The notes under the pieces are model-generated. The model was not told the origin of the DNA. It made no database searches and was given only the letters and a program-made list of their open reading frames with translations. The position numbers and the translations under genes were made by a program. Source: Candidatus Roizmanbacteria bacterium CG_4_9_14_0_2_um_filter_38_17 (lineage in GTDB: Bacteria > Patescibacteriota > Microgenomatia > GCA-00278855). Taken from it: a stretch of 64,000 nt of DNA. The stretch is taken from assembly GCA_002788855.1 (NCBI GenBank), contig PFSB01000006.1, positions 5,467-69,466 on the forward strand, read 5' to 3'. Positions 4,318-64,000 of the stretch are shown here, piece by piece. Position 1 is the first letter of the stretch, and each line of letters opens with the position of its first letter.

Positions 4318-5280
4318 ATGAATAAAGCAAGAAAAGTTTTAATTACAGGAATTACAGGTTTTGCAGGTAGCCATCTTGCAGAGCTGTTGCTGGATAAAGG
4401 TTATGACGTAGTAGGTACAATTCGACCTAGAAGTAAAACCGAGCATATAGATCATATTAAGAATAAGCTTAAACTGTATGATGCGGATCTTTCTGATTCT
4501 CATAGTTTGCAGACAGTTTTTATGACGGTAAAGCCAGAGTATATCTTCCACTTAGCTGCACAGGCATTTGTGCCTACTTCCTGGAGTAGTCCAGCAACTA
4601 CGATGGAAATTAATGCGTCTGGTTCAATTCATTTGTTTGAAGCAATTAGACGCGCTAATATTGATCCCGTTGTGCAGATTGCGTGTTCTTCAGAGGAGTA
4701 TGGTTTGGTAAAACCCGATGAAGTGCCGATAACAGAAGAAAATCCACTTAGACCGCTTTCACCATATGCAGTTTCTAAGATAGCCATGGACTATCTTGGT
4801 TATCAGTATTTCAAAAGTTATGGCGTGAGAATTATTAGAACTCGTGGATTTAATCATACTGGCCCAAGACGCGGAGATGTCTATGTGTGTTCAACGTTTG
4901 CTAAGCAAATAGCTTTAATTGAAGCAGATAAACAGGGTCCAATAATGAAAGTTGGCAATATTGAATCATATCGTGATTTTACAGATGTGCGTGATATGGT
5001 AAAGGCGTATTTGTTAGCAGTAGAAAAGGGAGAGCCTGGAGAAGTGTACAACATTGCAACGGGTAAAACGTGGCAGATTAAGAAGGTGCTAGATATGTTA
5101 CTTGGTATGAGTAAAAAAGATATTAAGATTGAGGAAGATCCCGAGCGAATGAGACCATCGGATGTTGAAATCCTACAGGGCGATGCGACTAAATTTAAAA
5201 AGGCTACTGGCTGGGAGCCAAAGTATAAGTTTGAGCAAACACTAGAAGACCTACTTAATTACTGGCGGGAACGAGTGTGA
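4318..5280 (+). CDS. NAD-dependent NDP-sugar epimerase/dehydratase, GDP-4-keto-6-deoxy-D-mannose reductase (Rmd)-like
   Basis: ITGITGFAGSHLAE Rossmann motif, YAVSK catalytic motif and C-terminal pattern FNHTGP...RDFTDVRD...GEVYN...TGWEP resembling Rmd/GMD-family SDRs. No gmd is present in the window. Confidence 0.6.
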   Translation: MNKARKVLITGITGFAGSHLAELLLDKGYDVVGTIRPRSKTEHIDHIKNKLKLYDADLSDSHSLQTVFMTVKPEYIFHLAAQAFVPTSWSSPATTMEINASGSIHLFEAIRRANIDPVVQIACSSEEYGLVKPDEVPITEENPLRPLSPYAVSKIAMDYLGYQYFKSYGVRIIRTRGFNHTGPRRGDVYVCSTFAKQIALIEADKQGPIMKVGNIESYRDFTDVRDMVKAYLLAVEKGEPGEVYNIATGKTWQIKKVLDMLLGMSKKDIKIEEDPERMRPSDVEILQGDATKFKKATGWEPKYKFEQTLEDLLNYWRERV

Positions 5281-6380
5281 AAAAAAAACCGCGTGTAGTA
5301 TTTATCTTACCTACATATAACGAGGTTGATAATATTAGCTTAGTAATTGAGCAGCTCCAGAATGTCTTTACTTCTATTTCTAGTTATACTTTTTCAATTC
5401 TTGTAGTTGATGATAAATCACCTGATAATACAGCAGGAATTGTCAATAAGTTAGGAAAAAAGTACTCAAATATAGAGCTTATTACAGGGGAAAAACAAGG
5501 CCTGGGAATTGCATATATACGTGGTATGAAATATGCAGAATCCAAGCTTCACGCTGATATATTTTTTAGTATGGATTCAGATTTATCTCACGATCCTTCT
5601 TTAATACCTCAGTTTTTACGCAAGATTGAGCAAGGCTCAGATATTGTTGTTGGAGCTAGATATATACCAGGTGGGTCAATTCCAGCTGATTGGGCATGGC
5701 AGCGTAAGCTATTTTCGATATTTGGGAATTTAATAATTCGTTTTGGCCTCATGATTCCTTCCATTCATGATTGGAGTAGTGGATATAGGGCGATTAAGGT
5801 TGAAGTATTTAAGAACATAGTGGATGGTTTAGATAAGTATAAAGGCTACACATTTCAGATGGCATATTTACATAGAGCTCTTAATGCAAAGTACAAAGTT
5901 GGGGAAGTACCGTTAAATTTTGTAGATAGAAAGCACGGTGAGTCAAAATTCATTCCTCTTGAATATATCTCGAACGTGCTGTTGTATATCCTCTTAAATT
6001 CAAGTTTTGTAAAATTTGGAGTTGTTGGAGTTGTTGGTTTTACAGTTAACCTGATAGGGCTTGAAGTATTTTATCGATTGGGATTTCATCCTGGAATTGC
6101 AGCTGCATTTGGGGCAGAGTTTGCGATTGTTTCAAATTTTATGTTTAATAATTTTTGGAGTTTTTCACATAAGAGTATTAAGAGGGGCGACGGATTACGA
6201 ATGAAGTTTTTAAGGTTTAATGGAGTTGCTGTGGGGGCTATTGTGATTCAAGCTCTTATCGTTGGCATAGGCACCAACATGTTTGGAGTAGATACGAGGT
6301 TCCTATTTTTACTATTGTCTTTAATACTTATAGTTCCATATAGTTATGTTATGTATAACCGTATTATATGGAAAAGCTAA
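5277..6380 (+). CDS. polyprenol-phosphate sugar synthase: GT2 (Dpm1-like) domain fused to C-terminal GtrA-like membrane domain
   Basis: GTG start in a GTGA overlap. N-terminal LPTYNE...VVDDKSPDNT...DSDLSHDP GT-A/DPM1 pattern; C-terminal 4-TM segment with a GtrA-family signature (GVVGFTVNL...SNFMFNNFWSF). An A9 tract lies at codons 2-4. Confidence 0.82.
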   Translation: MKKKPRVVFILPTYNEVDNISLVIEQLQNVFTSISSYTFSILVVDDKSPDNTAGIVNKLGKKYSNIELITGEKQGLGIAYIRGMKYAESKLHADIFFSMDSDLSHDPSLIPQFLRKIEQGSDIVVGARYIPGGSIPADWAWQRKLFSIFGNLIIRFGLMIPSIHDWSSGYRAIKVEVFKNIVDGLDKYKGYTFQMAYLHRALNAKYKVGEVPLNFVDRKHGESKFIPLEYISNVLLYILLNSSFVKFGVVGVVGFTVNLIGLEVFYRLGFHPGIAAAFGAEFAIVSNFMFNNFWSFSHKSIKRGDGLRMKFLRFNGVAVGAIVIQALIVGIGTNMFGVDTRFLFLLLSLILIVPYSYVMYNRIIWKS

Positions 6381-6387
6381 TATAAGC

Positions 6388-7935
6388 ATGAGGGGTTTTG
6401 TTTATCGTCACTGGGGAACGATTGGTATTTTTGCTATTCTTTTCTTATCCGCTTATCTTCGTTTGTGGAACATAGGAGGTTACATGACCTTTTTAGGTGA
6501 TGAGGGGAGAGATGTTCTGGTGGTTAAGAGAATGATTGTAGACCATGATATTACTTTTTTGGGTCCAACAGCTTCTGTGGGAGGATTTTTCTTAGGTCCA
6601 ATCTATTATTATTTTATGGCTCCTTTCTTGTGGTTATGGAATCTTAATCCGGTTGGACCGGCTGTAATGGTAGCGCTATTTGGTGTGGCTACAATATATC
6701 TATTGTATCGAGTGGGAACTGATTTTGTGTCAAGATCTACTGGGTATATCGCGGCTTTGTTATATGCTATCGCGCCTCTTGTTGTTGCGCACTCGCGTTC
6801 GTCATGGAATCCTAACATTGTCCCTTTTTTTTCTTTGCTGTATATCTATTCACTGTGGAAAGCACAAGAGTCACGAAAGGTAAGGTGGTTGTTTGTAGCA
6901 GGGATTTCGTTTGGAGTAGGAATTCAGTTGCACTATCTCTTTCTATTCATGCTGCCTGTTTCATTAATATATCTCTATCTGTATCGGGAAAAAATGTTGT
7001 TTATAAAGTTACGTACCTTTGTTCTGGGTGTGATTCTTCCACTTATCCCGTTTATAGGATTTGAGTTTAAAAATAAACTTCCAAATACACAGACAATTTG
7101 GCACTATGTAACAACAGAAGGAGATGTGGGTCTGAGCTTATCTGGATCAATATTAACGATGAGAGACGTGTTGTTTCGTTCTTTTGCTAGAGTACTGTTT
7201 AACTTTCCTCCACCTGAACAGTTTTATAAGTACGAAGACTGGGTAATTACTGTCTGGAAAACTAGCGTTTGGTTAGTAGTTATTTTAAGCATATTTATGC
7301 TACTTAGATATGTCCGTATGCAGAAAAGTAAGCCCCATTTGCTAATGCTGTTGTGGATGGTATTTGGCTTGGGTCTATTTATGTTGTATCAAAAGAGTAT
7401 TTATGATTATTATTTTGTATTAGTTTTTCCCTTATTGTTTCTATTGGTTGCTAATTTATTGGTTGTGTTTTGGCAAAGGAAATTACTTAAGCCCATAGCT
7501 GCTATTGCATTGGCGCTATTAATCTGGATTAATTGGATGGGTCGACCATTTCAGTTTCCGCCTAATAATCAGTTTGATCAGGTATCGATGATTAGTCGCT
7601 CGATTTTTAATCATGCAGACGGTAAACCGTTTAACTTTGCGCTTATTACTGGTGGTAATTCAGACCATGCATATCGCTATTTATTTGAGATCTGGGGTAA
7701 TCCCTCAGTTACGATTGAATTCGATGAAGTTGACCCAGAGAGGAAGACTGTTACTGATCAGCTTTATGTGCTTTGCGAAACATTACCTTGTGAACCACTT
7801 GGTCATCCGTTATGGGAGATAGCTGGTTTTGGTAGGGCTCAAATTGATACGAGCTGGAAGGTTTCGTTTCTAGAAGTGTATAGACTTGTGCCGTATCAAG
7901 GAGAAGACTTTGCTACAGAGGATAATGTGCGATAA
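6388..7935 (+). CDS. polytopic membrane glycosyltransferase, GT-C fold candidate (DE-motif family, paralog of 15209 and 38765 genes)
   Basis: About 12 predicted TM segments. First extracytoplasmic loop carries FLGDEGRD (GT-C-like acidic motif). Paralogous to 15209..16474 and 38765..40243 through the first two helices. ORF call from 6346 overlaps the upstream gene; ATG 6388 is preferred. Confidence 0.5.
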   Translation: MRGFVYRHWGTIGIFAILFLSAYLRLWNIGGYMTFLGDEGRDVLVVKRMIVDHDITFLGPTASVGGFFLGPIYYYFMAPFLWLWNLNPVGPAVMVALFGVATIYLLYRVGTDFVSRSTGYIAALLYAIAPLVVAHSRSSWNPNIVPFFSLLYIYSLWKAQESRKVRWLFVAGISFGVGIQLHYLFLFMLPVSLIYLYLYREKMLFIKLRTFVLGVILPLIPFIGFEFKNKLPNTQTIWHYVTTEGDVGLSLSGSILTMRDVLFRSFARVLFNFPPPEQFYKYEDWVITVWKTSVWLVVILSIFMLLRYVRMQKSKPHLLMLLWMVFGLGLFMLYQKSIYDYYFVLVFPLLFLLVANLLVVFWQRKLLKPIAAIALALLIWINWMGRPFQFPPNNQFDQVSMISRSIFNHADGKPFNFALITGGNSDHAYRYLFEIWGNPSVTIEFDEVDPERKTVTDQLYVLCETLPCEPLGHPLWEIAGFGRAQIDTSWKVSFLEVYRLVPYQGEDFATEDNVR

Positions 7936-7944
7936 AATCAAGCT

Positions 7945-8703: not shown

Positions 8704-8706
8704 ACA

Positions 8707-9849
8707 ATGCGACCCGGAGTTAAGATCTTAGTTGCAAGTTATTTTATAACAGTTCTGCTGCTCTTTCTTTATTCCTTTACACAGATAGATCTAAATCTAA
8801 CACTCTCACGTGTGTCAATTTGGCAGGGCATACAGAAATGGTTTATGTATATTGGATATTATAAGCGCCCCTTGTCTACGGCTATATTTATTTTAATTCT
8901 TCTGGCACTATATACGCAATATACTTTATTCCTTCGGCTGTCCTTGTCTAAGTTTTTAAGTACGAAGCATCTATTTCATATTATTATCTTAACAGGGGTT
9001 GTGCTGCTTTTTTCTTTTCCTGCTTTTTCGCATGACATCTTTAACTATATGTTTAGTGCTAAAACAATTATTAAATATGGTCAGTTACCATACTTTGCTC
9101 CACCGATGAATTTTCCCGATGATCCATGGCTTAACTTTATGCGTTGGATACATATACCAGGAACCTACCCACCTCTCTGGATACTTTTGACCTTACCTAT
9201 GTATCTAATCAGCTTTAATAAAATTGTGCTACTCATAATTAATTTTAAGCTTCTGTCTGTAGCTGGATACCTGGGTTCAAGTTTTTTGATTGCAAAAATT
9301 ATGCAGCGGATAAATTATCGCTACTGGAAAGCGGCAGTAGTTTCTTTTGCGCTTAATCCACTTGTCATTATTGAGAGCTTAGTTAGTGGTCATAACGATG
9401 TGGTCATGGCATTTTGGATGTTGCTTTCGATATATCTCTGGCAGAAAAAAGAACGTCTCTTTGGTGTGTTTACACTTTCAATATCCGTGGGAATAAAATG
9501 GATGTCTGTCTTTTTGTTACCGCTTGCAGTGTTTGGACCTAGGAGACTATTATCCTTGGCATTGATGTTGTTGGGTTTGGGTTTGGTCTTAACAAGGCGA
9601 GAATTTTTGCCTTGGTACTGGATCTGGATTGCGCCGCTTATAAGTTTGAATGTAGACCGCAAATTTATCTTTATACCTGGGGTAGCTTTGTCTTTTGGAC
9701 TATTATTGCGTTATACCCCATTTCTTTATCTGGGGAACTGGGATCCGCCGGTGCCCACGATTAAATTCTGGGTTACTGTTATTCCATTGGTTACTTCAGC
9801 TATAATGGTTGTATTGTTTTATTATGTTCAAAGACATCCAAAAAAATAA
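8707..9849 (+). CDS. integral membrane protein, putative GT-C/GT87(DUF2029)-like glycosyltransferase (paralog of 54363 gene)
   Basis: Polytopic protein with conserved loop motif FSHDIFNY shared with paralog 54363..55487 (FSNDIFNY). Confidence 0.4.
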   Translation: MRPGVKILVASYFITVLLLFLYSFTQIDLNLTLSRVSIWQGIQKWFMYIGYYKRPLSTAIFILILLALYTQYTLFLRLSLSKFLSTKHLFHIIILTGVVLLFSFPAFSHDIFNYMFSAKTIIKYGQLPYFAPPMNFPDDPWLNFMRWIHIPGTYPPLWILLTLPMYLISFNKIVLLIINFKLLSVAGYLGSSFLIAKIMQRINYRYWKAAVVSFALNPLVIIESLVSGHNDVVMAFWMLLSIYLWQKKERLFGVFTLSISVGIKWMSVFLLPLAVFGPRRLLSLALMLLGLGLVLTRREFLPWYWIWIAPLISLNVDRKFIFIPGVALSFGLLLRYTPFLYLGNWDPPVPTIKFWVTVIPLVTSAIMVVLFYYVQRHPKK

Positions 9850-11332
9850 GACGTTTATTATAAGTATTGTTATTTTTCTGGTCTTGTATTTTGTTACACG
9901 ACTTATTAATTTAACAGCATTACCTATATTTACCGATGAGGCTATTTATATACGTTGGGCGCAGATTGCTAATCAAGATGCAAGTTGGCGATTTATCTCG
10001 CTAACTGACGGTAAACAACCTCTCTTTGTTTGGGGGGCCATGATAATGTTACGTTTTGTGAGTGATCCGGTCGTAGCTGGACGAGTAGTATCTGTATTTG
10101 CGGGAGCTGGGACACTAGTAGGAATTGGACTACTGGCTAGAGAACTTTTTAAGAATACGAGAACAGGTATAATCGCATCTTTCTTGTATTTAATCTATCC
10201 CTTTGGATTAATGTATGATCGAATGGCTCTCATGGATTCGATGGTGGCGATGTTTTCAGTTTGGTCACTGTATTTAGCTGTAATACTGGCTCGGCGTCCC
10301 AGATTGGATGTGTTGTTGTTGTTTGGCATGGTGCTGGGTGGAGCGACTCTGACTAAAACGAGCGGTTTCCTTAATATTTATCTGCTGCCAGTAACACTTT
10401 TACTATTTGATTGGCAAAAGAAAAATCGAAATATGCGACTTCTGACATGGTTTATATTTGCATTATTTGCGGTTTTTCTTTCCCAGGCATACTACAGTAT
10501 CCTGCGACTTTCACCTTGGTTTCATATGATAGCTCAGAAAGATACGACTTTTTTGTATACACTTACAGAGTGGAAAGAACATCCCTTCCGCTTTTTGTAT
10601 GGAAACCTAAGAGGAGAGCTTGATTGGGTTACACATTATATGACCTGGTCTCTTCTCCTACCAGTTATTGAAGCACTAGTTTTGTTCTGGAAAGAGACGA
10701 GGGTTAAGCTGTTACTTTTAATAATGTTTAGTGCTCCTTTGGTTGGATTGGCTCTATTTGGTAAAGTTCTTTATCCTCGTTTTGTCCTATTTATGACAAT
10801 GCCACTATTGGTTCTTGCAGCATGGAGCTTAAATTATATGACTGAGCGAATTAAACACAAAATGGTTCTAGTTCTGATATATGTGTTGTTGGTTAGCTAC
10901 TTAGTGTATTTTGACGCTAAGATATTGCTGAGTATTATTACGGCACCTTTGCCTAGATCTGACGCTGGTCAATATGTTAACGATTGGCCATCAGGTTGGG
11001 GAATTAGAGAGTCAGTGGACTTCTTAGCTAAAGAGGTTCAAGATAAAGAAATTACGGTGTTTACTGAGGGTAATTTTGGCTTATTACCGTATGGTATTGA
11101 GATTTATCTCGTAGATGATCCAAAACTTGAAATTATTGGAATGTGGCCTGTCCCAAGTGAATATACAGATCAGATGAAAGAAAAGATTGATCAAGAGCCA
11201 GTTTATTATATTTCGAATCGAGAGCAAGAGCTACCTTGGAAATGGAAAGCAGAGCTAATTGGTGAGTGGAATAAAGGCAGTAATACAACTCGCAAATTAA
11301 GGCTCTGGAAGCTTAAGGATAATGAATCGTAA
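9809..11332 (+). CDS. ArnT/PMT-like GT-C glycosyltransferase (COG1807-like)
   Basis: First loop has PIFTDEAIY (DE/DEx motif) followed by WRFISLTDGKQPL; 507 aa polytopic. Start could also be the ATG at 9824. Confidence 0.55.
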   Translation: MYCFIMFKDIQKNKTFIISIVIFLVLYFVTRLINLTALPIFTDEAIYIRWAQIANQDASWRFISLTDGKQPLFVWGAMIMLRFVSDPVVAGRVVSVFAGAGTLVGIGLLARELFKNTRTGIIASFLYLIYPFGLMYDRMALMDSMVAMFSVWSLYLAVILARRPRLDVLLLFGMVLGGATLTKTSGFLNIYLLPVTLLLFDWQKKNRNMRLLTWFIFALFAVFLSQAYYSILRLSPWFHMIAQKDTTFLYTLTEWKEHPFRFLYGNLRGELDWVTHYMTWSLLLPVIEALVLFWKETRVKLLLLIMFSAPLVGLALFGKVLYPRFVLFMTMPLLVLAAWSLNYMTERIKHKMVLVLIYVLLVSYLVYFDAKILLSIITAPLPRSDAGQYVNDWPSGWGIRESVDFLAKEVQDKEITVFTEGNFGLLPYGIEIYLVDDPKLEIIGMWPVPSEYTDQMKEKIDQEPVYYISNREQELPWKWKAELIGEWNKGSNTTRKLRLWKLKDNES

Positions 11333-15203: not shown

Positions 15204-15208
15204 ACTAA

Positions 15209-16474: not shown

Positions 16475-16512
16475 CCACATGTGATTGTCCGGAAGCACAC
16501 AGGTTCAAATAT

Positions 16513-26720: not shown

Positions 26721-26726
26721 TAAAGA

Positions 26727-35610: not shown

Positions 35611-35611
35611 T

Positions 35612-45309: not shown

Positions 45310-45323
45310 GCCTTCTTAAGGCT
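45309..45323. terminator. weak bidirectional hairpin between convergent genes
   Basis: AGCCTTcttAAGGCT (6-bp stem) spans the stop codons of the convergent genes. It is preceded by A7 on plus (T7 for the minus transcript) and followed by GTTTATAT. Confidence 0.3.
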
Positions 45324-51438: not shown

Positions 51439-51459
51439 TAAAATGATAACATAGGCTAA

Positions 51460-57081: not shown

Positions 57082-58328
57082 AGTTTAAATTAGCGCCATT
57101 ATTAATATTTCTTACAGTTTTTATTGTCTATTTTGGGTTGGGGACAAAATGGACGTTTGAGTCATTATGGGCACTGGATTATTTCAATAATCTAGCGGAA
57201 TCACTATTACAAGGGAAATTGAATATTTCAGAACCAGGAAGTACTTATGACTTAGTGCTATTCCAGGGAGGTTGGTATCTGCCCTGGGGAGCTTTAGTGG
57301 GGTTGTTATTTATCCCCATGCAGTTAATAAAAGGGGGTTACGTTCCGTCTATATATTTAAATGTTCTTATATCGAGTTTGGATGTTGTATTGTTCTATCT
57401 GATTCTAAAGCGCTTTAGAAGAAGCTATTTTCCAGAGTTGGATAAAGTAGCTATCTGGCTAGCAACTGCTTTATTTGCATTTGGTACTACGCATTTTTAT
57501 GTTGGTACTTTGGGAAGCTCCTGGCATACAGATCAGATGATATCTAGTTTTTTTGGTACCGCTGGGATATATATGATTCTGCATGACAAGCGCGGGTTCA
57601 AAGATTATCTATTAGCAAGTATCTGTTTTAGCATCTCGCTTATAGGCAAAGGGACCATTATTATGTTGGGTACTTTGCCAGCGATACTTTATTTCTGGGA
57701 TTTGTATCAAGGTCAGATGAAATTTAAACTAGGTCGTTTTATATTGCTGATTATGCCTGTGGCATTATTTTCGGTTCTGTTTTTGTCTCATAATTATTTG
57801 CGATTTGGCGATCCTCTTGAATACGGTTATTCATATATTAAAGAAGCTCCATACTTAGAGCAGAGGAGGGTGGAACATGATGCTTTTTCGCTGAAGCATG
57901 TTTCTTATAATTTGCACTATATGTTACTTGAAGCACCGAGGTTTAGCTGGAATGAAGGGATTAAAATGGATATTAACTTAAAAGGTAACTCAATATTGTT
58001 ATTAACCCCCTCACTATTTTTTATGTTTCTAGCTCATCCGTTTCGTAGGTTTAAGAACAAGGAATTTAGAGCTGTGCTATCTGCCCTGTGGATAACGATG
58101 TTGTTTACTATTTTACCCAGTCTAATGGTCTATAGCACTGGCTGGATGCAGTTTGGCTATCGATACAGCTTGGATATAACTGCCATATTAGTTTTACTAT
58201 CTATTGTAGGCTTGCAAAGCACATTCCAGGAATGTGTATCACATTCCAGGAATGTGTCAATACTATATAGCTTAGGGATAATGGCAGCAGTATATATGCA
58301 CTACCTTGGAATCACAGCACTCCAATGA
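57078..58328 (+). CDS. polytopic membrane protein, unknown (possible GT-C)
   Basis: ~11 TM; C-terminal region carries tandem 20-nt palindromic repeats. Confidence 0.4.
   Translation: MKFKLAPLLIFLTVFIVYFGLGTKWTFESLWALDYFNNLAESLLQGKLNISEPGSTYDLVLFQGGWYLPWGALVGLLFIPMQLIKGGYVPSIYLNVLISSLDVVLFYLILKRFRRSYFPELDKVAIWLATALFAFGTTHFYVGTLGSSWHTDQMISSFFGTAGIYMILHDKRGFKDYLLASICFSISLIGKGTIIMLGTLPAILYFWDLYQGQMKFKLGRFILLIMPVALFSVLFLSHNYLRFGDPLEYGYSYIKEAPYLEQRRVEHDAFSLKHVSYNLHYMLLEAPRFSWNEGIKMDINLKGNSILLLTPSLFFMFLAHPFRRFKNKEFRAVLSALWITMLFTILPSLMVYSTGWMQFGYRYSLDITAILVLLSIVGLQSTFQECVSHSRNVSILYSLGIMAAVYMHYLGITALQ
58211..58260. repeat. copy B of composite repeat: tandem 20-mers CACATTCCAGGAATGTGT(AT/CA), each a 17-nt palindrome
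   Basis: Read directly: cttgcaaagCACATTCCAGGAATGTGTATCACATTCCAGGAATGTGTCAA. Confidence 0.85.
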
Positions 58329-59704
58329 AGCAAAAAATTATTAAATATTTTCCGCTTATCATTGTCTTACTTTTTGCTATTTTTGTATCAAGACATTTAT
58401 TATTACCCGGATTTGTTCCTACGCATGATGGGGAGTATCATATTATCCGTTTCTGGCAGTTTGATAAGGTTATACGCTCAGGTAACCTATTCCCGCTCTG
58501 GGCACCTGACCTGGATTTTGGTAAAGGTGTACCTATCTTCGCATACTTTTACCCACTGCCTAACTATATAGCTGAAGTATTTATTCTTCTGGGATTTTCG
58601 TATGTAAAAAGCCTGCATTTGGTATTGGCCAGTGGCTTAGTTTTCTCTGCAGTCTCTTTTTATCTATGGACTAGGACTTTATTTGGTCGATGGGCAGGGC
58701 TTGTGGGGGCAGTATTTTATACTTTGGCGCCTTATCATTTGGTCGATGTATTTGTGCGTGGTTCGGTTGGGGAAGTATGGTCGCTTGCACTAGCTCCTCT
58801 ATGTTTATTTTTTACAACCAAACTTGTAACTAATCGTAAGTATGTAGTGTTAAATAGTATATTCCTTTACCTGCTTTTGCTATCACACAATATATTAGGT
58901 CCTGTATTTTTTGTATTTTGCCTTGTCTATGGATTACTATTTTTACACAAAGCTAAAAAGACAAAACCCACTCCTGGAGTGGGTTTCTTGTTGTTGCTTA
59001 GCTATTTTCTGGGTTTTATTTTATCTTTGTATTTCTGGTTACCAATAATTTTAGATCGAAGCTATGTTACCGGACTTGAAACTGTAAATATTATTGATCA
59101 CTTTCCAGAAATTTATAAACTTATTTTTCCCTCCTGGGGTACGGGGTTTTCAGGGAGAGGATATAGTGCAGATCAAATGAGCTTTCAAATTGGAATTGCA
59201 CATATTCTTGCATTCGTGGCTGTGATATTGCTACTCATTAAAAAGAAACTCAAAAGCTCTCTAGTTAAGTATATGTTAATTTCTTTTCTTATCTCCGTAT
59301 GGTTAATGCTTGATGTTTCATCTTTTATTTGGCAAAAAATAACATGGATGAGCTATTTTCAGTTTCCCTGGAGGTTGTTGTCTGTGGTAATTATTACAAC
59401 TTCATTTATGGCTGGATATGTATCTCGTAGATCAAGAATTATTTCTGCTGTGCTGATAATTATGGCAGTATTATTATATTTACCCTATACTAGGCCGGTT
59501 GTTTATGAGCCAAGGGATGACTCATTTTATTTAAGTAATCCAACCTGGACAGAAGGTACAGCTACAACAGGGAATGTTTTTAGGGCTAAATCTGAAAGTA
59601 GAGATCAAATAAATAATTCTTTAGCAAGGACATCTGGGAGTATAATTTCGATAATTGGTTTGTTAACGTTAATACTAATTAAAGTTAAGAACAATGAAAT
59701 ATAA
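58325..59704 (+). CDS. membrane protein, H-D-x3-H family GT-C candidate (paralog group B, 5 of 5)
   Basis: FVPTHDGEYHIIRF...LFPLWAPDLDFGKGVPIFAYFYPLPNY. Confidence 0.5.
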   Translation: MKQKIIKYFPLIIVLLFAIFVSRHLLLPGFVPTHDGEYHIIRFWQFDKVIRSGNLFPLWAPDLDFGKGVPIFAYFYPLPNYIAEVFILLGFSYVKSLHLVLASGLVFSAVSFYLWTRTLFGRWAGLVGAVFYTLAPYHLVDVFVRGSVGEVWSLALAPLCLFFTTKLVTNRKYVVLNSIFLYLLLLSHNILGPVFFVFCLVYGLLFLHKAKKTKPTPGVGFLLLLSYFLGFILSLYFWLPIILDRSYVTGLETVNIIDHFPEIYKLIFPSWGTGFSGRGYSADQMSFQIGIAHILAFVAVILLLIKKKLKSSLVKYMLISFLISVWLMLDVSSFIWQKITWMSYFQFPWRLLSVVIITTSFMAGYVSRRSRIISAVLIIMAVLLYLPYTRPVVYEPRDDSFYLSNPTWTEGTATTGNVFRAKSESRDQINNSLARTSGSIISIIGLLTLILIKVKNNEI

Positions 59705-60794
59705 GATAATAACTGCTATTTTAATGCTGCTCATGCTAGCTGGTTTAATAAGGGAAATAAGCCAGATAAATTTTAGATCAGAGTATAAAACAGATGTTTA
59801 TAAAAAAGTATATGAACAGTCACAGTATAGGAACGGACAGGGGTTAATAGGGGATCATATAGTTTATCTATATGCGGCTGGCTCACTTATGGAGGGAGGA
59901 AATCCGCTTAAAATTAATCCTGAAGTTCCACCTCTAGGGGAATACATGATTGGGCTATCTATCTTGTTATTTAACAATCCTAATTACACTGTCGTTGCTG
60001 CATCAATTCTTATTCTTTTTGCTTTGTTTTTATTGGGTAATAAGCTGTATAAGAAGCCAGCGCTTGCTCTAATACCCGTCTCACTATTTGGACTGGAACG
60101 TCTGTTTTTGGATCAGCTTAAATTACCTCTTCTGGATATAATTCAATTACCGTTTATATTATTAGCCTTTTACTTTTTCTTTTGCTCAGTTACCACAAAT
60201 CAAAAACGATACTATTTAGCGACTGGTCTGGTGCTGGGATTTGTTATTGGTATTAAAGTTATGATTACGGGGGTTTTAATGGTTATTGCTTGGATGGTTT
60301 ACTTATTTATAGCTCGCAATTGGAGGAGTATCAGAGACTTAGTGTTTTTAACGTTACCAACAGCCTTTGCAGTTCTTGTAGTGTCTTATCTAAGAATATT
60401 TATCTATGGAGTTAGCTTCTGGTATTTTCTCTTAGTACAAAAATGGGTATTGTTGTATCAGCAAGGTAAGATTCAGTACCCTTTTTCTGCCTGGAAATTG
60501 CTTTTGTTTAACCAGTGGCAAGCTTGGTGGGGAGATTACAGTATTTTGCATACAGTAGATTGGCGCATAACCTGGCCTATTATTACTCTGATGAGCTTTT
60601 TCTTTATCTTGTATAAGCTGGTCAAAAAGGAGACTTGGAGTGAAATGGAGGGGATAATTACAGCATGGGTAGTAGTGTTTAGTGGTTTTATCTCACTAGG
60701 AACTATCAGCACGCGCCACCTTCTGCCTTTCTTGCCTTTTCTTTATTTGTTGAGCTTTAAATTCATCTATAGGTTTATAGATAAGCATAAGTGA
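59694..60794 (+). CDS. polytopic membrane protein, unknown
   Basis: 366 aa, ~9 TM, no soluble domain. Confidence 0.4.
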   Translation: MKYKIITAILMLLMLAGLIREISQINFRSEYKTDVYKKVYEQSQYRNGQGLIGDHIVYLYAAGSLMEGGNPLKINPEVPPLGEYMIGLSILLFNNPNYTVVAASILILFALFLLGNKLYKKPALALIPVSLFGLERLFLDQLKLPLLDIIQLPFILLAFYFFFCSVTTNQKRYYLATGLVLGFVIGIKVMITGVLMVIAWMVYLFIARNWRSIRDLVFLTLPTAFAVLVVSYLRIFIYGVSFWYFLLVQKWVLLYQQGKIQYPFSAWKLLLFNQWQAWWGDYSILHTVDWRITWPIITLMSFFFILYKLVKKETWSEMEGIITAWVVVFSGFISLGTISTRHLLPFLPFLYLLSFKFIYRFIDKHK

Positions 60795-60828
60795 GTATCT
60801 CCTCCCTATTTTTTGGTAAAATGAATGG

Positions 60829-61887
60829 ATGTCGAAGATTGCTATTTCTACATCTGCTTTAAAGACGGGTTACCGTTTTCAGGGCACAGGTAACTATATT
60901 AGCCATCTGGTAGATGGACTTAAAGAGTTAAACGACGGGAATAAATACTATCCGTATACGCAAGATGAAAAATGTCCTGCTGTAGACATTGTCCACATTC
61001 CTTACTTTTCGCCATTTATGGTAACTTTGCCTTATATAAAGCCGGCAAAAAAGCTTATAGTGACAGTTCATGATTTAACTCCTGTGGTTTATGATAACTT
61101 TTTCTCTGCCGGGGTTCGAGGAAAATATAATTGGTATCTACAGAAGTTTTTATTGAAGCACAATATTGACCATGTGTTGGCTGATTCAAGTTCTTCAAAA
61201 GATGAAGTCTTGAGTCACTTAAACCTTGAGAATGATAAGGTCTCGGTAGTATATCTAGCAGCGGACCGCAGGTATACTAAGCTACAGGATAAACCCAAGG
61301 TATTAGCAAATATGCAGAAGAAATACAATCTACCTGAGAAGTTTGTGCTTTATGTAGGCGATGTGCTCTGGAGTAAAAACCTACCGTCATTAATAGAGGC
61401 AGTTAAAGAGATTAACGTGACGCTTGTGTTAGTAGGCAAGCAGTTTGTCGACGAAGCAATCGATCTTGCTCATCCCTGGAATATTGATCTAGCTAAAGTG
61501 AGACAGGTTATAAAAGGAGATAGACGTTATATAACATTAGGATTTGTTCCAGATGAGGATCTAGTTGAGCTATACAATGTTGCTACGCTGTATTGTCAGC
61601 CTTCCCACAGCGAGGGATTTGGAATTCCGGTGTTAGAAGCAATGAGTTGTGGATGTCCTGTGGTTGTATCGGACGCAGGCTCTCTGCCAGAGGTAGCGGG
61701 TGAAGCAGGAGTATATGTAGATCCAGCGGACGTACGAAGCATTGCCGATGGGATTGGTGAACTATACTTTAATCAGAAAAAGAATGAAATACATAGAGTA
61801 AAAGCCCTAGAACAAGCACAGAAATTTAGCTGGGAAAAGACCGTAAACCAAACAGTTGCTATTTATAATAAATTAATAGATGCGTGA
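60829..61887 (+). CDS. GT4 family glycosyltransferase (GT-B)
   Basis: FVLYVGDVLWSKNLPSLIEA...EGFGIPVLEAMSCGCPVVVSDAGSLPEVAG GT4 signature; a TAAAAT -10-like element sits in the 34-nt upstream gap. Confidence 0.8.
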   Translation: MSKIAISTSALKTGYRFQGTGNYISHLVDGLKELNDGNKYYPYTQDEKCPAVDIVHIPYFSPFMVTLPYIKPAKKLIVTVHDLTPVVYDNFFSAGVRGKYNWYLQKFLLKHNIDHVLADSSSSKDEVLSHLNLENDKVSVVYLAADRRYTKLQDKPKVLANMQKKYNLPEKFVLYVGDVLWSKNLPSLIEAVKEINVTLVLVGKQFVDEAIDLAHPWNIDLAKVRQVIKGDRRYITLGFVPDEDLVELYNVATLYCQPSHSEGFGIPVLEAMSCGCPVVVSDAGSLPEVAGEAGVYVDPADVRSIADGIGELYFNQKKNEIHRVKALEQAQKFSWEKTVNQTVAIYNKLIDA

Positions 61888-63142
61888 AAGACTTCATAGG
61901 AGCCTAGCTAACCCTCTACTAACTGGAAGTTTTCTGGTTAGCGTGGGACTTACTGTTGGTAACATATTTAATTATCTCTACCATGTAAGCATGGGTAGAA
62001 TGCTTACCCCAGCACATTACGGCGTGCTGACGGCTTTAATTTCTTTTATGAGTATCTTTGGTGTGTTTGCCGCAACAATGACAACAGTTGTGGCTAAATT
62101 TGTCTCTAAGTATAGGGTACAGGATAATAGTAGTGATATTGCTCATCTACTTAGACAGCTAATTAGACGTATCGGGTTGCTAGTATTGGTGGTGGTTGTT
62201 TTATCACAGTTTATTGTTGCACCAATTGCGTCTTTCTTGCACATAGAAGATGGTATTTTAATTAATCTAACAATCGTAGGAATATTACTTGCCATATTGG
62301 TTGCAATTAACAGTGGGGCGTTACAAGGGCTTTTGAAGTTTAAAATTATGGCGCTCTTTGGAGCCAGTGGAAGCATTTTGCGGCTGGTACTGGCATTGAC
62401 ACTTGTATATTTAGGTTTTGGGTTAAGGGGTGCGGCAGTTGGTTTTTTTCTCGCATATCTTATTCCATATTTACTAACTTTTTTCCCACTTGGTAGTTAT
62501 ATTTTTCGGAAAGAAAGCCGTAAACAGATTCAATATGGACCTCTTATAAAATATTCGCTACCTTCATTCGTAGCCCTGGTTGGCTTAAGTATGCTTTTGA
62601 GTATGGATATTATTTTAGTAAAGCATTTTTTCACAGATACTGATGCAGGTCGCTATTCAGCTCTTTCGGTGATAGGAAGAGTTATCTTTTTTGCCACTAG
62701 TTCAATTAGTATGGTTATGTTTCCCATCATTGCGGGCAAGTTTGAGCAAGGAAAAGATCATACTAAGACATTTTTAGTGAGTCTATTATTGGTTTTTGGA
62801 GCTGGCTCGTTTGCGACTCTTGTGTACTTTATATTTCCACAGGCTTTAATTCAGCTGTTCTATAACAATCCAAGCTATCTTGTGGAGATGCATAATCTGG
62901 GTCTAATGGGATTATTCTTTTTTATATATAGCTTAGTGGCGCTTTTTATCCAGTATTATCTGTCTATTTCGCGCACGAAAATAGTGTTAACTTCTGTAGT
63001 AGCTAGCATATTGCAGGTGATATTGATCTGGAATTTTCACATAAGCCTAAGACACGTTATAATATCTTCAATAACCGCTGAGGGCCTACTATTAATATTG
63101 CTAGTAGGATACTATCTAGTTAGGGTTCATAATGAAAAATAA
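61880..63142 (+). CDS. Wzx-like oligosaccharide flippase (MOP superfamily)
   Basis: 420 aa, 12+ TM; N-terminal LLTGSFLVSVGLTVGNIFNYLYHVSMGRMLTPAHYG typical of PST/Wzx family proteins. Confidence 0.7.
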   Translation: MRERLHRSLANPLLTGSFLVSVGLTVGNIFNYLYHVSMGRMLTPAHYGVLTALISFMSIFGVFAATMTTVVAKFVSKYRVQDNSSDIAHLLRQLIRRIGLLVLVVVVLSQFIVAPIASFLHIEDGILINLTIVGILLAILVAINSGALQGLLKFKIMALFGASGSILRLVLALTLVYLGFGLRGAAVGFFLAYLIPYLLTFFPLGSYIFRKESRKQIQYGPLIKYSLPSFVALVGLSMLLSMDIILVKHFFTDTDAGRYSALSVIGRVIFFATSSISMVMFPIIAGKFEQGKDHTKTFLVSLLLVFGAGSFATLVYFIFPQALIQLFYNNPSYLVEMHNLGLMGLFFFIYSLVALFIQYYLSISRTKIVLTSVVASILQVILIWNFHISLRHVIISSITAEGLLLILLVGYYLVRVHNEK

Positions 63143-63929
63143 CAAACTCTCCATTATTGTCCCAGCCTATCGACAAGGTGATACTTTAGTTAAGAACATA
63201 CGAAAAATTACATCTGTTCTTGAAGAAGTAGCGCCAAATGCCTATGAGGTTATTGTTGTTGAAGATGGTAAACTAGATAATTCGTTTGAGTTATTAGAAA
63301 AGGCGAATATTCCTCACGTTAAAATAGCAGGTTACGGCAGTAATCATGGTAAAGGTTACGCTGTCCGTTATGGTATGGCGCGAAGTACAGGTGATATTAT
63401 TGGCTTTATTGATGCTGGTGCGGATTTAGATCCAAAGGGGCTAAAGATACTTCTTGTGCATATGGAGTGGTATGGGGCAGATATTATCGTGGGAAGTAAG
63501 TGGCATCCTGTTTCTAGGGTAAAGTATCCTTGGTGGAGAAAAATTATTTCTAAAGTATATGGACTCTATGTAAAACTTCTTTTTGGACTAGATATTAGCG
63601 ATACTCAGTTAGGTATGAAGTTTTTTCGTAGAGAAGTACTGGAGAAAGTACTTCCAAGGTTGTTAGTAAAGAAGTATGCAATGGATATTGAGCTTCTAGC
63701 AGTGGCAAACAGGGTAGGATTTACCCGGATTTATGAAGCGCCAATAGAGCTTGATTGGAGCCAAATAGATAGTCAGATCTCAAAGAATATATATAGGTCG
63801 ATCTGGGATATGGCTTTGGATACGCTTGCCGTATTCTATAGACTTAAGATCCTTCATTACTATGATGATTCTAGTAAGCGCAAATGGCGTTATGATAAAG
63901 ATCTTCAAATGAAGGTAAATATAGGATGA
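63132..63929 (+). CDS. GT2 polyprenol-phosphate glycosyltransferase (Dpm1-like)
   Basis: LSIIVPAYRQGDTL...VIVVEDGKLDNS...GFIDAGADLDP motifs. Confidence 0.75.
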   Translation: MKNNKLSIIVPAYRQGDTLVKNIRKITSVLEEVAPNAYEVIVVEDGKLDNSFELLEKANIPHVKIAGYGSNHGKGYAVRYGMARSTGDIIGFIDAGADLDPKGLKILLVHMEWYGADIIVGSKWHPVSRVKYPWWRKIISKVYGLYVKLLFGLDISDTQLGMKFFRREVLEKVLPRLLVKKYAMDIELLAVANRVGFTRIYEAPIELDWSQIDSQISKNIYRSIWDMALDTLAVFYRLKILHYYDDSSKRKWRYDKDLQMKVNIG

Positions 63930-64000
63930 AGGTTCATTTCATAATCTTGATGTTTGTGATTTGGAGGGTTAGTCTTGAGTTCTGGCGATGGGTTGGTGAG
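63926..64000 (+). CDS. 5' end of a further membrane protein gene running off the window
   Basis: ATG at 63926 in an ATGA overlap with the preceding stop; translation MKVHFIILMFVIWRVSLEFWRW is hydrophobic. Confidence 0.35.
   Translation, partial: MKVHFIILMFVIWRVSLEFWRWVGE

Follow-up and report, generated by a model that had tools for sequence, protein, structure and literature searches.

A Conserved GT-C Glycosyltransferase Array in Microgenomatia Suggests an Elaborate Envelope Glycan

Introduction

Why would a groundwater bacterium with a tiny genome, Candidatus Roizmanbacteria (Patescibacteria, class Microgenomatia), carry a cluster of about 71 kb and about 60 genes that is dominated by membrane glycosyltransferases? 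The 64-kb stretch of DNA analyzed here (the window) is the central part of this cluster, whose limits lie at about −44 and +71,080 in window coordinates. At the 5′ end the limit coincides with the window's first base, except that RmlA starts ~44 bp upstream (as taken from the upstream context in locus L007), and at the other end the cluster extends ~7.1 kb beyond the window. A first-pass annotation of the sequence proposed a supercluster of ~25 GT-C-type enzymes in tandem three-component modules that decorate an acceptor combinatorially.

Results and Discussion

The supercluster itself is borne out, with 26 intact GT-C genes and one frameshifted copy together occupying 65% of the window (Table 1). 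Coding sequence makes up 99.5% of the window (53 ORFs, all but three on the plus strand) and only four intergenic gaps exceed 20 bp, a tight packing that is operon-like. The other components are six Dpm1-like GT2 enzymes, five further GT2 enzymes, two GT4 enzymes, two Wzx/MOP flippases, one GtrA domain, one methyltransferase, and an NDP-sugar module. The last of these had been predicted as a dedicated module, and profile and PDB matches place it at 4-5280. Its RmlA reaches 207 bits against TIGR01207, which is under the cutoff because the sequence is truncated.

Table 1. Features of the window, named in the text by start position.
Position	Strand	Assignment	Evidence
4..681	+	RmlA glucose-1-phosphate thymidylyltransferase; first gene of cluster	PF00483 E 6e-44
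560..1138	+	Cupin, RmlC/WxcM-like; start probably near 674	Weak FdtA and Polysacc_synt_C matches; 154 aa in other assemblies
1140..2135	+	RmlB dTDP-glucose 4,6-dehydratase	TIGR01181 494.6 bits (over 365 cutoff)
2116..3012	+	RmlD-like dTDP-4-dehydrorhamnose reductase	PF04321 E 8e-51; TIGR01214 159 bits (under cutoff)
3009..4304	+	UDP-glucose 6-dehydrogenase	Three UDPG_MGDP_dh domains; TIGR03026 460 bits (over cutoff)
4318..5280	+	GDP-6-deoxyhexose reductase/dehydratase-like SDR (Rmd/GMD-like)	Top PDB match 2pk3 (GDP-6-deoxy-D-lyxo-4-hexulose reductase), E 3.6e-81
5277..6380	+	Dpm1-like GT2 fused to GtrA flippase-type domain	PF00535 E 6e-25; PF04138 E 7e-16
6346..7935	+	GT-C PMT_2; conserved D52-E53	PF13231 50.5 bits
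7945..8703	+	Dpm1-like GT2 (polyprenyl-phosphate sugar synthase type)	PF00535 E 1.5e-28
8707..9849	+	GT-C MptA/B-like; SxDxFNY motif	PF26314 precomputed match; weak GT87; 31% identity to 54363
9809..11332	+	GT-C PMT_2/PMT; conserved D43-E44	PF13231 41.8 bits; PF02366 33.1 bits
11322..12833	+	GT-C PTPS_related paralog	Paralogy to 12818, 27550, 51460, 58325 (E 1e-35 to 1e-47); alignment
12818..14473	+	GT-C PTPS_related	PF10131 48 bits
14460..15203	+	Dpm1-like GT2	PF00535; NCBIfam matches
15209..16474	+	GT-C PMT_2	PF13231 42.8 bits
16541..17995	+	Wzx/MOP flippase	PF13440 E 1.6e-46
17997..18902	+	GT2 family B (GmaR/SunS-like)	Top PDB match GmaR 22ao, E 7.7e-17
18909..19607	+	232-aa protein, N-terminal membrane anchor	One TM segment; S/T/N-rich ectodomain
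19604..20521	+	GT2 (soluble type)	PF00535; PF13641
20509..21240	+	GT2 family B	31% identity to 17997
21219..23489	+	GT-C YfhO	PF09586 91.9 bits
23470..24504	+	GT4	PF00534 E 3e-26
24477..26720	+	GT-C YfhO	PF09586 63.1 bits
26727..27656	+	GT2 (soluble type)	PF00535 E 2e-30
27550..29289	+	GT-C PTPS_related paralog	34% identity to 51460, E 5e-86
29271..31613	+	GT-C YfhO	PF09586 92.2 bits
31603..33252	+	GT-C PMT_2 subfamily A; conserved D35-E36	PF13231 47.4 bits
33249..34958	+	GT-C, no Pfam model ("FPP" motif)	AlphaFold2 pLDDT 90.8; Foldseek
34918..35610	+	SAM-dependent methyltransferase	PF08241 E 5e-24
35612..38059	+	GT-C YfhO	PF09586 89.7 bits
38056..38772	+	Dpm1-like GT2	Top PDB matches DPMS 5mlz, then ArnC, GtrB
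38765..40243	+	GT-C PMT_2	PF13231 30.4 bits
40170..41441	+	GT-C, distant MptA/B-like	No match of its own in Pfam search; hhalign to MptAB family 96.9% probability
41438..43147	+	GT-C PMT_2 subfamily A	PF13231 47.7 bits; PF02366 42.9 bits
43082..43825	-	Dpm1-like GT2; one C-terminal TM segment	PF00535
43928..45309	+	DUF2079 (GT-C-like) pseudogene	Three reading frames; PF09852 on 3/3 fragments
45316..46902	-	GT-C, no Pfam model; FGCFDDCFN motif; start probably 46845	AlphaFold2 model; GT-C structure matches
46874..48481	+	GT-C PMT_2 subfamily A	PF13231 42.4 bits
48474..50138	+	GT-C PMT_2 subfamily A	PF13231 40.7 bits
50116..51438	-	GT-C PMT_2	PF13231 34.7 bits
51460..53148	+	GT-C PTPS_related	PF10131 36.1 bits
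53133..53894	+	GT2 family B	38% identity to 17997
53891..54382	+	DUF5667 membrane-anchored helical protein	PF18915 E 1e-5
54363..55487	+	GT-C MptA/B-like	PF26314 precomputed match; 31% identity to 8707
55468..57081	+	GT-C, superfamily of 33249	hhalign to 33249 family; weak Dpy19 match
57078..58328	+	GT-C candidate, no Pfam model	Homologs, hhalign, conserved residues
58325..59704	+	GT-C PTPS_related, lacks C-terminal domain	PF10131 31.6 bits; alignment
59694..60794	+	GT-C PMT_2 (short form)	PF13231 36 bits
60829..61887	+	GT4	PF00534 E 7e-29
61880..63142	+	Wzx/MOP flippase	PF01943 41 bits
63132..63929	+	Dpm1-like GT2	PF00535

Both Pfam profiles and structure matches (Foldseek) identify the large membrane proteins as GT-C enzymes rather than transporters. 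Seventeen exceed Pfam gathering scores, including all four YfhO proteins (PF09586) and all ten PMT_2 proteins, whereas PTPS_related contributes three of its five members in this way and the other two are placed by paralogy (E 1e-39 to 1e-86). Three MptA/B-like proteins, four proteins without a Pfam model, and the DUF2079 pseudogene complete the tally, and the window's GT-Cs span at least eight sequence families. The families that had been recognized by motif are recovered: the "H-D" family is PTPS_related (conserved D35), the "DE" family is PMT_2, the "FSxDIFNY" family is 8707 and 54363, and the "FPPE" family is 33249 and 55468. The YfhO count of four is also confirmed; the PMT_2/ArnT-like family is present as claimed, but with ten members rather than 4-6.

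Relationships among these families are detectable by hhalign (YfhO-PTPS 99.7% probability, PMT_2a-PTPS 96.5%), and an Asp or Asp-Glu after TM1 is conserved in the families checked for loop-1 acidic residues. AlphaFold2 models of 33249 and 45316 (pLDDT 91) have only GT-C proteins as top structure matches. For 33249, GT-C proteins make up all of the top 32 PDB matches by Foldseek, including STT3/AglB/PglB (E 6e-10) and AftA (TM-score 0.54), and its family aligns over full length with that of 55468 (99.7% probability, E 1.6e-26). The 57078 protein is a probable GT-C, judging from conserved D34 and D58 and a 90% hhalign probability against PMT_2 subfamily A; none of its more than 210 homologs has a Pfam domain.

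All nine GT2 genes listed earlier as polyprenol-phosphate-sugar synthase types match PF00535 over the gathering score. Six of them (5277, 7945, 14460, 38056, 43082, and 63132), those singled out earlier as Dpm1-like, form one paralog group, with polyprenyl-phosphate glycosyltransferases as their top matches in NCBIfam and the PDB. By sequence, these short proteins are DPMS/ArnC/GtrB-like, predicted polyprenyl-phosphate sugar synthases. For example, 38056 aligns along its entire length with Pyrococcus furiosus DPMS (5mlz), covering the whole catalytic domain (E 1.6e-19). The top NCBIfam matches of 7945 are PgfS, ArnC, and dolichyl-P hexose transferase, and those of 43082 are AglJ, dolichyl-P hexose transferase, and PpgS. 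All six score far under NCBIfam equivalog cutoffs, and in five the TM segments seen in GtrB and CsbB are missing. The remaining three (17997, 20509, and 53133) instead resemble GmaR and SunS-type protein glycosyltransferases, and we have dropped their Dpm1-like designation. The two Wzx, two GT4, and two further GT2 genes (19604 and 26727) noted previously are present.

Each Dpm1-like gene was thought to sit immediately upstream of a GT-C gene. This adjacency is real except at 43082, a minus-strand gene that converges on 41438 and diverges from the DUF2079 pseudogene, and is therefore not upstream of an intact GT-C gene. A partner for 63132 exists, but it is a 335-aa PIG-V-like protein just past the window end (loci L010-L012). 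Likewise, only three modules show the three-component arrangement with a recognizable flippase, namely 5277 (carrying the only GtrA domain at the locus) with 6346; 14460 with 15209 and Wzx 16541; and Wzx 61880 with 63132 and the downstream GT-C. Elsewhere, GT-C genes occur in runs without their own synthase or flippase. Overall there are 26 GT-Cs for six donor synthases, or about four each. Characterized organisms have just 1-3 GT2/GT-C pairs per genome (PMC8035078). An array of the kind described here has apparently not been reported.

We compared 79 loci from metagenome-assembled genomes of Levy-, Gottesman-, Roizman-, Chisholm-, Collier-, and Woesebacteria. Most of these loci have 5-11 GT-C genes per ~21 kb, and their gene order matches that of the window. 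Identity to collinear orthologs in Gottesman-, Levy-, and other Roizmanbacteria is 33-64%, against 23-39% between paralogs within the window, and every paralog is closer to a collinear ortholog elsewhere in Microgenomatia than to the other window copies. The duplications are therefore ancient, and the array is a conserved trait of class Microgenomatia rather than an isolated case or the product of recent tandem duplication. Dozens of assemblies from the same population carry identical proteins.

From the ratio of about four GT-Cs per synthase and the conserved orthologs in distant relatives, we infer a fixed multistep assembly. Our slightly favored reading is that this conserved collinear locus builds an envelope glycan, with the GT-Cs working as a fixed series of extracytoplasmic assembly and branching steps, perhaps akin to that for mycobacterial LM/LAM/arabinogalactan. 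The first six genes would provide dTDP-L-rhamnose, UDP-glucuronate, and a GDP-6-deoxyhexose. At the cytoplasmic face, the six anciently diverged synthases would each load one sugar onto polyprenyl phosphate. The GtrA domain of 5277, and probably also the two Wzx/MOP proteins, would flip these lipid-linked monosaccharides, and the 26 GT-Cs would each use these carriers to add a sugar to an acceptor beyond the membrane. A lipid-linked primer or backbone may come from the soluble GT2 and GT4 enzymes together with a Wzx flippase. Searches of the window, its flanks, and the clusters of relatives found no acceptor, initiating phosphoglycosyltransferase, polymerase, ligase, or polyprenyl-phosphate synthase. 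Candidates for the presumed product, one complex conserved glycoconjugate, are a lipoglycan, a wall polysaccharide, and a major surface-protein glycan.

The GT-Cs might instead be interchangeable enzymes for combinatorial single-sugar decoration, as first proposed. GT-C content does differ by lineage: 15209 is missing from Gottesmanbacteria loci, and Levybacteria loci have extra YfhO/PTPS/PMT_2 insertions. In addition, the DUF2079 member is a fixed pseudogene with identical fragmentation in six independent assemblies. Some GT-Cs may therefore be dispensable decorators. However, deep conservation of the array disfavors combinatorial decoration as its general role, and having 6 synthases for 26 GT-Cs is at least equally compatible with stepwise extracytoplasmic assembly, so we consider decoration the less likely explanation. 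Because the array is conserved class-wide, these "minimal" bacteria probably make an elaborate, hitherto uncharacterized sugar coat.

Two anchored proteins lie among the glycosyltransferase genes. The 18909 protein, which gave no match in the Pfam search, is a possible acceptor or accessory protein. The order 53133-53891-54363, with the DUF5667 gene in the middle, is retained in six other loci (L081, L066, L051, L070, L084, and L060).

Inventory and packing of the locus

A Pfam scan of every open reading frame (ORF) in the window, combined with an all-against-all BLASTP comparison and, for some proteins, profile-profile comparison and structure prediction, identifies 26 intact genes for GT-C-type proteins (polytopic membrane glycosyltransferases). 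They total 41.8 kb, which is 65% of the window, and one further member is a pseudogene. The inventory offered by the first-pass annotation, which was made from the sequence alone, is borne out by these searches with only small corrections. Four groups that it had delineated by motif are real: the "H-D" proteins are PTPS_related members with an invariant Asp after the first transmembrane (TM) helix, the "DE" proteins belong to PMT_2, the "FSxDIFNY" motif marks 8707 and 54363 (S108-x-D110-x-F-N-Y), and the "FPPE" motif marks 33249 and 55468. The loop-1 Asp-Glu pair is kept in PMT_2 subfamily A and in 6346, 9809 and 50116, and is replaced by D-Q in 15209.

Features of the glycosylation locus. Single numbers are gene starts in the window, and a trailing minus marks a minus-strand gene.
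Feature	Position	Strand	Basis or remark
YfhO (PF09586), four genes	21219, 24477, 29271, 35612		91.9, 63.1, 92.2 and 89.7 bits, respectively; gathering threshold 28.5
PTPS_related, five genes	11322, 12818, 27550, 51460, 58325		Three above the gathering score; two by paralogy, E 1e-39 to 1e-86
PMT_2 (PF13231; ArnT/PMT-like, GT39/GT83-type), ten genes	Next two rows		30-50 bits; threshold 26.1
PMT_2, tight subfamily A	31603, 41438, 46874, 48474		30-38% identical
PMT_2, six looser members	6346, 9809, 15209, 38765, 50116-, 59694
MptA/B-like, three genes	8707, 54363, 40170		Precomputed PF26314 matches for 8707 and 54363; hhalign 96.9% for 40170
No Pfam family, four genes	33249, 45316-, 55468, 57078
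DUF2079 (GT-C-like) pseudogene	43928-45309	+	Three overlapping frames: 43928-44527, 44484-44996, 44896-45309
DPMS-like GT2 synthases, six genes	5277, 7945, 14460, 38056, 43082-, 63132		43082- spans 43082-43825
Second GT2 family, three genes	17997-18902, 20509-21240, 53133-53894
Flippase-bearing module (one of only three)	5277 (GT2-GtrA), 6346
Flippase-bearing module	14460, 15209, 16541 (Wzx)
Flippase-bearing module	61880 (Wzx), 63132, next GT-C
S/T/N-rich membrane-anchored protein	18909-19607		232 aa
DUF5667 protein	53891-54382
RmlA	Begins about 44 bp before the window		First gene of the cluster
Upstream of the cluster			TsaD, CAP-domain protein, small ORFs
Downstream part of the cluster	Beyond the window end		335-aa PIG-V-like membrane protein, second DUF5667 protein, two GT4, epimerase, DegT aminotransferase, GT2

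The DUF2079 gene is fragmented in all six of the independent assemblies examined, into a 199-aa piece plus a remainder of 126 aa or of 170 + 118 aa. Because the same fragments recur in six assemblies, an assembly error is ruled out, and the gene is a fixed pseudogene. It adjoins, in divergent orientation, the only DPMS-like (dolichyl-phosphate mannose synthase-like) GT2 gene on the minus strand.

Non-coding sequence is scarce: ORFs take up 99.5% of the window, no more than four gaps are longer than 20 bp, and only three genes are on the minus strand. The G+C content runs from 0.34 to 0.40, GC skew is positive throughout, and scans of the window for tRNAs and Rfam families returned no element. 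Given the start of the cluster upstream of the window and its extension of about 7.1 kb beyond the window end, the locus spans about 71 kb and about 60 genes. The same contig is found in many JGI, ENA and Logan assemblies, as well as in PCTA01000017.1 (GCA_002786635.1, 76.5 kb), where the window corresponds to bases ~5,498-69,497, and GCA_009992065.1. In NCBI and UniRef its proteins carry the names Candidatus Roizmanbacteria bacterium or Candidatus Microgenomates. In one assembly (JGI 3300025034; locus L010, 19245-20711), the final gene of the cluster is immediately followed by an IS66-family transposase, about 8.5 kb past the window end.

GT-C proteins without a Pfam family

The four proteins that lack a Pfam family were resolved only by profile-profile comparison and structure prediction. 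Family HMMs built from window paralogs and relatives gave no match to any of them, profiles A2 (the 33249-family alignment), A3 and A4 returned nothing meaningful against PDB sequences, and neither 33249 nor 55468 has a sequence-level PDB match. We recognized a GT-C fold as seven to thirteen TM helices in the GT-C arrangement, judged by structural similarity to solved GT-C enzymes. For 33249, all 72 homologs are unannotated proteins of Patescibacteria, and an AlphaFold2 model built from their alignment has a pLDDT of 90.8. When this model was compared with the PDB by Foldseek, the best 32 matches were all GT-C enzymes, led by STT3/AglB/PglB (E 6e-10 to 1e-6) and followed by DPY19, AftA (TM-score 0.54), ArnT, Pmt4, Emb, AftD and AftB. 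An assignment of 33249 and 55468 as oligosaccharyltransferases, for which we looked for the WWDxG motif in the C-terminal extracytoplasmic domain, was rejected because a WWDYG-like motif occurs in 0 of 40 sequences of A2 and 0 of 31 of A5 (the 55468-family alignment).

The 55468 family is very large, with 1,625 representative clusters (50% identity) at E <= 1e-3, and its profile aligns over the full length with the 33249 family (hhalign 99.7%, E 1.6e-26). Three of the 31 sampled homologs in A5 carry a fused GT2 domain, and others carry NHL or beta-propeller fusions; the GT2 fusion links the family to lipid-sugar donors by an independent line. Protein 57078, with more than 210 homologs, has no Pfam match and aligns with PMT_2 (subfamily A) at an hhalign value of only 90%, and is probably a GT-C as well. 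An invariant acidic residue in loop 1, after TM1, is present in each case: D38 in the 33249 family, D38-D39 in 45316, D34 and D58 in 57078, and D46 in 55468. Overall, at least three GT-C families that are absent from Pfam, and that appear to be undescribed, are present at this locus. The large membrane proteins did not emerge from the profile and structure searches as transporters or unrelated DUFs, which the first-pass annotation had named as the result that would count against it.

Donor synthases, flippases and sugar supply

Six short GT2 proteins (the DPMS-like synthases in the table) form one loose paralog group whose members are 24-31% identical. Protein 38056 aligns end to end (match over residues 1-233) with the catalytic domain of the dolichyl-phosphate mannose synthase of Pyrococcus furiosus (5mlz, E 1.6e-19), and then with ArnC and GtrB. 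Across the group, the top-ranking NCBIfam models all describe polyprenyl-phosphate glycosyltransferases (PgfS, AglJ, dolichyl-P hexose transferase, ArnC and PpgS), and the scores fall so far below the equivalog cutoffs that the sugars are not nameable from sequence. Synthase 5277 carries a C-terminal GtrA domain, and the other five are missing the TM hairpin of GtrB/CsbB. The second GT2 family had also been taken for Dpm1-like, which proved incorrect; its members are closest to Listeria GmaR (PDB 22ao, E 7.7e-17) and to SunS. GmaR is a flagellin O-GlcNAc transferase and the SunS-type enzymes are peptide glycosyltransferases, and the resemblance hints that this family may glycosylate proteins or peptides in the cytoplasm instead of making lipid-linked sugars.

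Synthases directly precede a GT-C gene in five pairs: 5277/6346, 7945/8707, 14460/15209, 38056/38765, and 63132 with the next gene beyond the window. The expectation that every synthase sits upstream of a GT-C thus fails only for 43082-, which is on the minus strand, converges with 41438, diverges from the DUF2079 pseudogene and has no GT-C directly downstream. These five pairs favor the model in the first-pass annotation, wherein cytoplasmic GT2 and GT4 enzymes build a polymer or a glycoprotein glycan, Wzx flips it, and many independent three-component modules of the GtrABC or CsbB/GtcA/YfhO type then decorate it heavily and combinatorially with single sugars. Three of the modules do contain a flippase, and enzymes known to decorate LTA, WTA and rhamnan are found in the YfhO and PMT_2 families (PMC8035078). 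However, six synthases must serve 26 GT-Cs, and GT-C genes also stand in long runs without a synthase (21219-35612, 46874-51460 and 54363-59694). The candidate flippases for the six synthases amount to a single GtrA domain, the one on 5277, and a pair of Wzx/MOP proteins that may serve them. Because of these few flippases, the orientation of 43082- and the synthase-free runs, the description of the locus as a tandem array of three-component modules is only partly accurate: it holds for the three flippase-bearing modules and not for the long GT-C runs.

Among the sugar-supply genes, a supply of dTDP-rhamnose is predicted from RmlA, RmlB (which exceeds its equivalog cutoff), a cupin and an RmlD-like protein, and the set also includes a UDP-glucose dehydrogenase. 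The co-occurrence of Ugd, an SDR, DegT, GT2 and PMT_2 led us to consider the Arn (L-Ara4N) pathway. Both this and a UDP-xylose pathway via SDR 4318 were rejected, since 4318 is Rmd/GMD-like, matching 2pk3 (GDP-6-deoxy-lyxo-4-hexulose reductase, E 3.6e-81) and GDP-mannose dehydratases, and it scores 50.7 bits against the ArnA-type model, whose cutoff is 294.

Candidate acceptors

The window, its flanks and the unassigned ORFs of relatives' clusters yielded neither a convincing acceptor nor an initiating phosphoglycosyltransferase, a polymerase or a ligase. The search of flanks and relatives' ORFs gave only choline-kinase-like, RDD, PIG-V-like GT-C, methyltransferase, UDP-GlcNAc 2-epimerase, HAD hydrolase and EamA transporter proteins. 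The only candidates within the locus for an acceptor or accessory role are 18909 and the DUF5667 protein 53891. The former has one N-terminal TM helix, an S/T/N-rich ectodomain and no Pfam match, and shows weak conservation at the corresponding place in L023, L030, L033 and L068 (loci from other genomes); it is possibly a glycosylation acceptor or an accessory protein. DUF5667 proteins combine an N-terminal anchor with a K/E-rich helical domain, and 53891 always lies between GT2 53133 and MptA/B-like 54363, a synteny kept in at least six other Microgenomatia loci. A second DUF5667 copy (203 aa, minus strand) is encoded about 1 kb past the window end (L010-L012). DUF5667 proteins could be scaffolds, chain-length factors or acceptors.

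The presence of these two conserved membrane-anchored proteins inside the cluster is one of several reasons to ask whether most of the GT-Cs are instead PMT/DPY19/STT3-like protein glycosyltransferases that carry out O-, C- or N-glycosylation of many secreted or surface proteins (S-layer, pili, adhesins), with the paralogs differing in protein substrate. The ten PMT_2/PMT matches, the placement of the 33249 model nearest to STT3/AglB/PglB and DPY19, and the resemblance of the second GT2 family to GmaR and SunS are all in keeping with such a role. Yet the WWDYG-type motif is absent from the 33249 and 55468 families, Pfam scans detected no MIR domains in the PMT_2 proteins, and no S/T-rich candidate substrate is encoded nearby, apart from 18909, which qualifies weakly. 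The characterized mycobacterial relatives of the MptA/B-like proteins act mostly on glycopolymers or lipids, which we also count against protein glycosylation. The same is true of characterized bacterial relatives of PMT_2 and YfhO (PMC8035078). On balance, we regard a predominant role in protein glycosylation as unlikely.

Conservation in relatives

Using the PTPS_related alignment as a pattern, we scanned one genome per species, called ORFs in the resulting loci and matched them to the window proteins. The scan yielded 79 loci, all from Patescibacteria metagenome-assembled genomes (MAGs), mostly Levy-, Gottesman-, Roizman-, Chisholm-, Collier- and Woesebacteria. Most of these loci of about 21 kb contain 5-11 GT-C genes and no more than four DPMS-like GT2 genes, and most also contain Wzx, the other two GT2 types and GT4. 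The stretch 1140-24504 of the window corresponds gene for gene to Gottesmanbacteria loci L027, L035 and L088, minus 15209 and 18909. The gene order of 46874-63929 is largely that of Roizmanbacteria locus L081, and also of L066, L070, L051 and L084, each without a few of the window genes. The Gottesmanbacteria contig MFJV01000001.1 (1.02 Mb) carries two adjoining loci that together cover 45 kb, with 15 GT-C genes in all.

Nearly every paralogous gene of the window has a best cross-genome match at 33-64% identity, versus 23-39% for its best paralog within the window, with bit scores about twice as high. The duplications are thus older than the split of these lineages, which makes the array an ancient, conserved trait of the class Microgenomatia. 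A recent tandem duplication was rejected on the same grounds, given that the paralogs are only 23-39% identical and the cross-genome orthologs are closer.

Such depth counts against the combinatorial decoration model, because ancient paralogs with collinear orthologs in class-level relatives differ from known decoration modules, which are typically variable between strains or serotypes and often phage-borne (PMC11127046). In favor of decoration are lineage-specific gains and losses of GT-C genes together with the one pseudogene. Modular variation is indeed seen: 15209 is missing from the Gottesmanbacteria loci, and Levybacteria loci L013 and L036 have YfhO, PTPS and PMT_2 insertions. In view of the shared synthases and this conservation, we consider decoration by independent modules somewhat unlikely as the main function.

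The same variation could be read as the mark of a diversification island for surface antigens or for phage or host receptors, in which GT-C paralogs are swapped, inactivated or phase-varied. Rearranged or inserted GT-C genes between lineages, the fixed DUF2079 pseudogene and the IS66 transposase at the downstream edge in one assembly would fit. However, the window proteins are identical in dozens of samples and assemblies of the population, collinearity runs deep among orthologs that are 40-64% identical, only 1 of the 27 members has decayed, and the tRNA and Rfam scans of the window were empty. We give this reading very little credence. Decoration, protein glycosylation and antigenic diversification are not mutually exclusive, and each keeps some probability.

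The loci of relatives also have genes that the window lacks (L039 12214-13209 on the minus strand, L075 11491-12970 and L060 19206-21011). Their products include a choline/ethanolamine-kinase-like protein, a HAD hydrolase accompanied by an EamA transporter, a methyltransferase and a UDP-GlcNAc 2-epimerase, suggesting that individual lineages add groups other than sugars, such as phosphocholine, as well as further sugars.

Comparison with known systems

The general mechanism is very probably extracytoplasmic, lipid-carrier-dependent glycosylation, and our confidence comes from a parts list that matches known logic (PMC8035078, PMC11127046). As in the three-component systems (GtrA/GtrB/Gtr*, CsbB/GtcA/YfhO, GtlA/GtlB, GacI/J/K/L and ArnC/ArnEF/ArnT), a GT2 synthase adjoins a GT-C, GtrA and Wzx flippases are present, and the YfhO, PMT_2 and GtrA Pfam families are held in common. 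The TM-less synthases and Wzx proteins resemble the GacI/K/L layout of S. pyogenes, where a TM-less GacI is used with a Wzx flippase (PMC8035078; PMC11127046). However, characterized genomes have one to three GT-A/GT-C pairs, with three each in B. subtilis and L. lactis (PMC8035078), and variants with multiple GT-Cs receive only passing mention (PMC11127046). Known pairs are usually scattered or serotype-specific, whereas here 26 GT-Cs and six synthases are contiguous, most of the GT-Cs lack a dedicated synthase or flippase, and conservation is at the class level rather than strain-variable.

We favor the interpretation that the GT-Cs would act in a fixed series of steps that assembles and branches a complex, conserved glycoconjugate, similar to the lines that make mycobacterial LM, LAM and arabinogalactan. 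This interpretation draws on the sharing of six donor synthases by 26 GT-Cs, on the conservation of each individual paralog, in order, over deep time, and on the MptA/B-like members and the Aft-like proteins among the nearest structural neighbors. The mycobacterial pathways use Ppm1 and DPA donors and the GT-Cs PimE, MptA/B/C, EmbA/B/C and AftA-D, whose genes are dispersed over a 4.4-Mb genome. Here, as in mycobacteria, many GT-Cs would draw on few polyprenyl-phosphate sugar donors in elongating and branching a complex envelope glycan outside the membrane; 8707 and 54363 belong to the MptA/B family, and AftA and AftB rank high among the structures that match the new families. In contrast, the Microgenomatia locus is a single operon-like array in a genome that is probably near 1 Mb, the sequence identity is remote, and giant enzymes of the Emb or AftD type, DPPR synthase and PIM anchor genes were not seen at the locus.

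Likenesses extend to the dolichol-phosphate pathways of eukaryotes and archaea. For the synthases, the nearest matches are P. furiosus DPMS, archaeal AglJ and dolichyl-P hexose transferase; ALG3/9/12, Pmt4, DPY19 and STT3 are matched by the GT-C models; and a PIG-V-like gene lies just downstream. The locus is bacterial, however, and has no oligosaccharyltransferase motif, and the likeness is at the fold level only.

Perhaps Microgenomatia, as ultrasmall and presumably host-dependent cells with genomes near 1 Mb, commit about 5-7% of the genome to one ancient operon-like locus, in which at least 26 GT-Cs, supplied by six synthases, assemble the major envelope glycoconjugate of the lineage almost wholly outside the membrane. 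It would then be an independent counterpart of LAM and arabinogalactan and the densest known GT-C locus, with at least three families founding new CAZy families. We offer this extended proposal as tentative.

Glycosylation in Patescibacteria

To our knowledge, the envelope of CPR/Patescibacteria is essentially uncharacterized. One survey found glycan-biosynthesis genes besides those for peptidoglycan and LPS to be "almost missing" in these organisms (PMC7137472), a verdict that rests on KEGG-type annotation, which is blind to the proteins of this locus. Another study counted 20 glycosyltransferases in a Parcubacterium and called the CPR envelope unclear (PMC5220378). In the full-text literature covered, mostly outside subscription journals, we found no description of GT-C-rich loci in CPR, Patescibacteria or Microgenomates. 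Thus the parts are familiar, and their scale, packing and lineage-wide conservation appear undescribed.

The Microgenomatia locus is the opposite of "almost missing", being a very large, conserved and tightly packed investment in extracytoplasmic glycosylation. In an organism presumed to live on other cells or to rely on them, the product would be a leading candidate for the surface layer behind attachment, host recognition or phage defense. At least three of the GT-C families at the locus are unclassified, and one of these comprises more than 1,600 representative clusters. The locus further provides six anciently diverged DPMS-like synthases, and it is a natural system in which to ask how many GT-Cs a few lipid-linked donors can serve.

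Gene calls and record titles

Many of the plainly Microgenomatia-like MAGs recovered in the scan (binchicken and SRP co-assemblies) are titled "uncultured Gammaproteobacteria bacterium", which looks like a placeholder or mislabel. Several longest-ORF starts are probably too far upstream, namely those of 45316-46902 (minus), 560-1138 (plus) and 27550-29289 (plus). Calls in other assemblies give 509 aa for 45316- (start 46845), 154 aa for 560 (start about 674) and 553-556 aa for 27550, and several apparent gene overlaps are consequently artefacts of these early starts.
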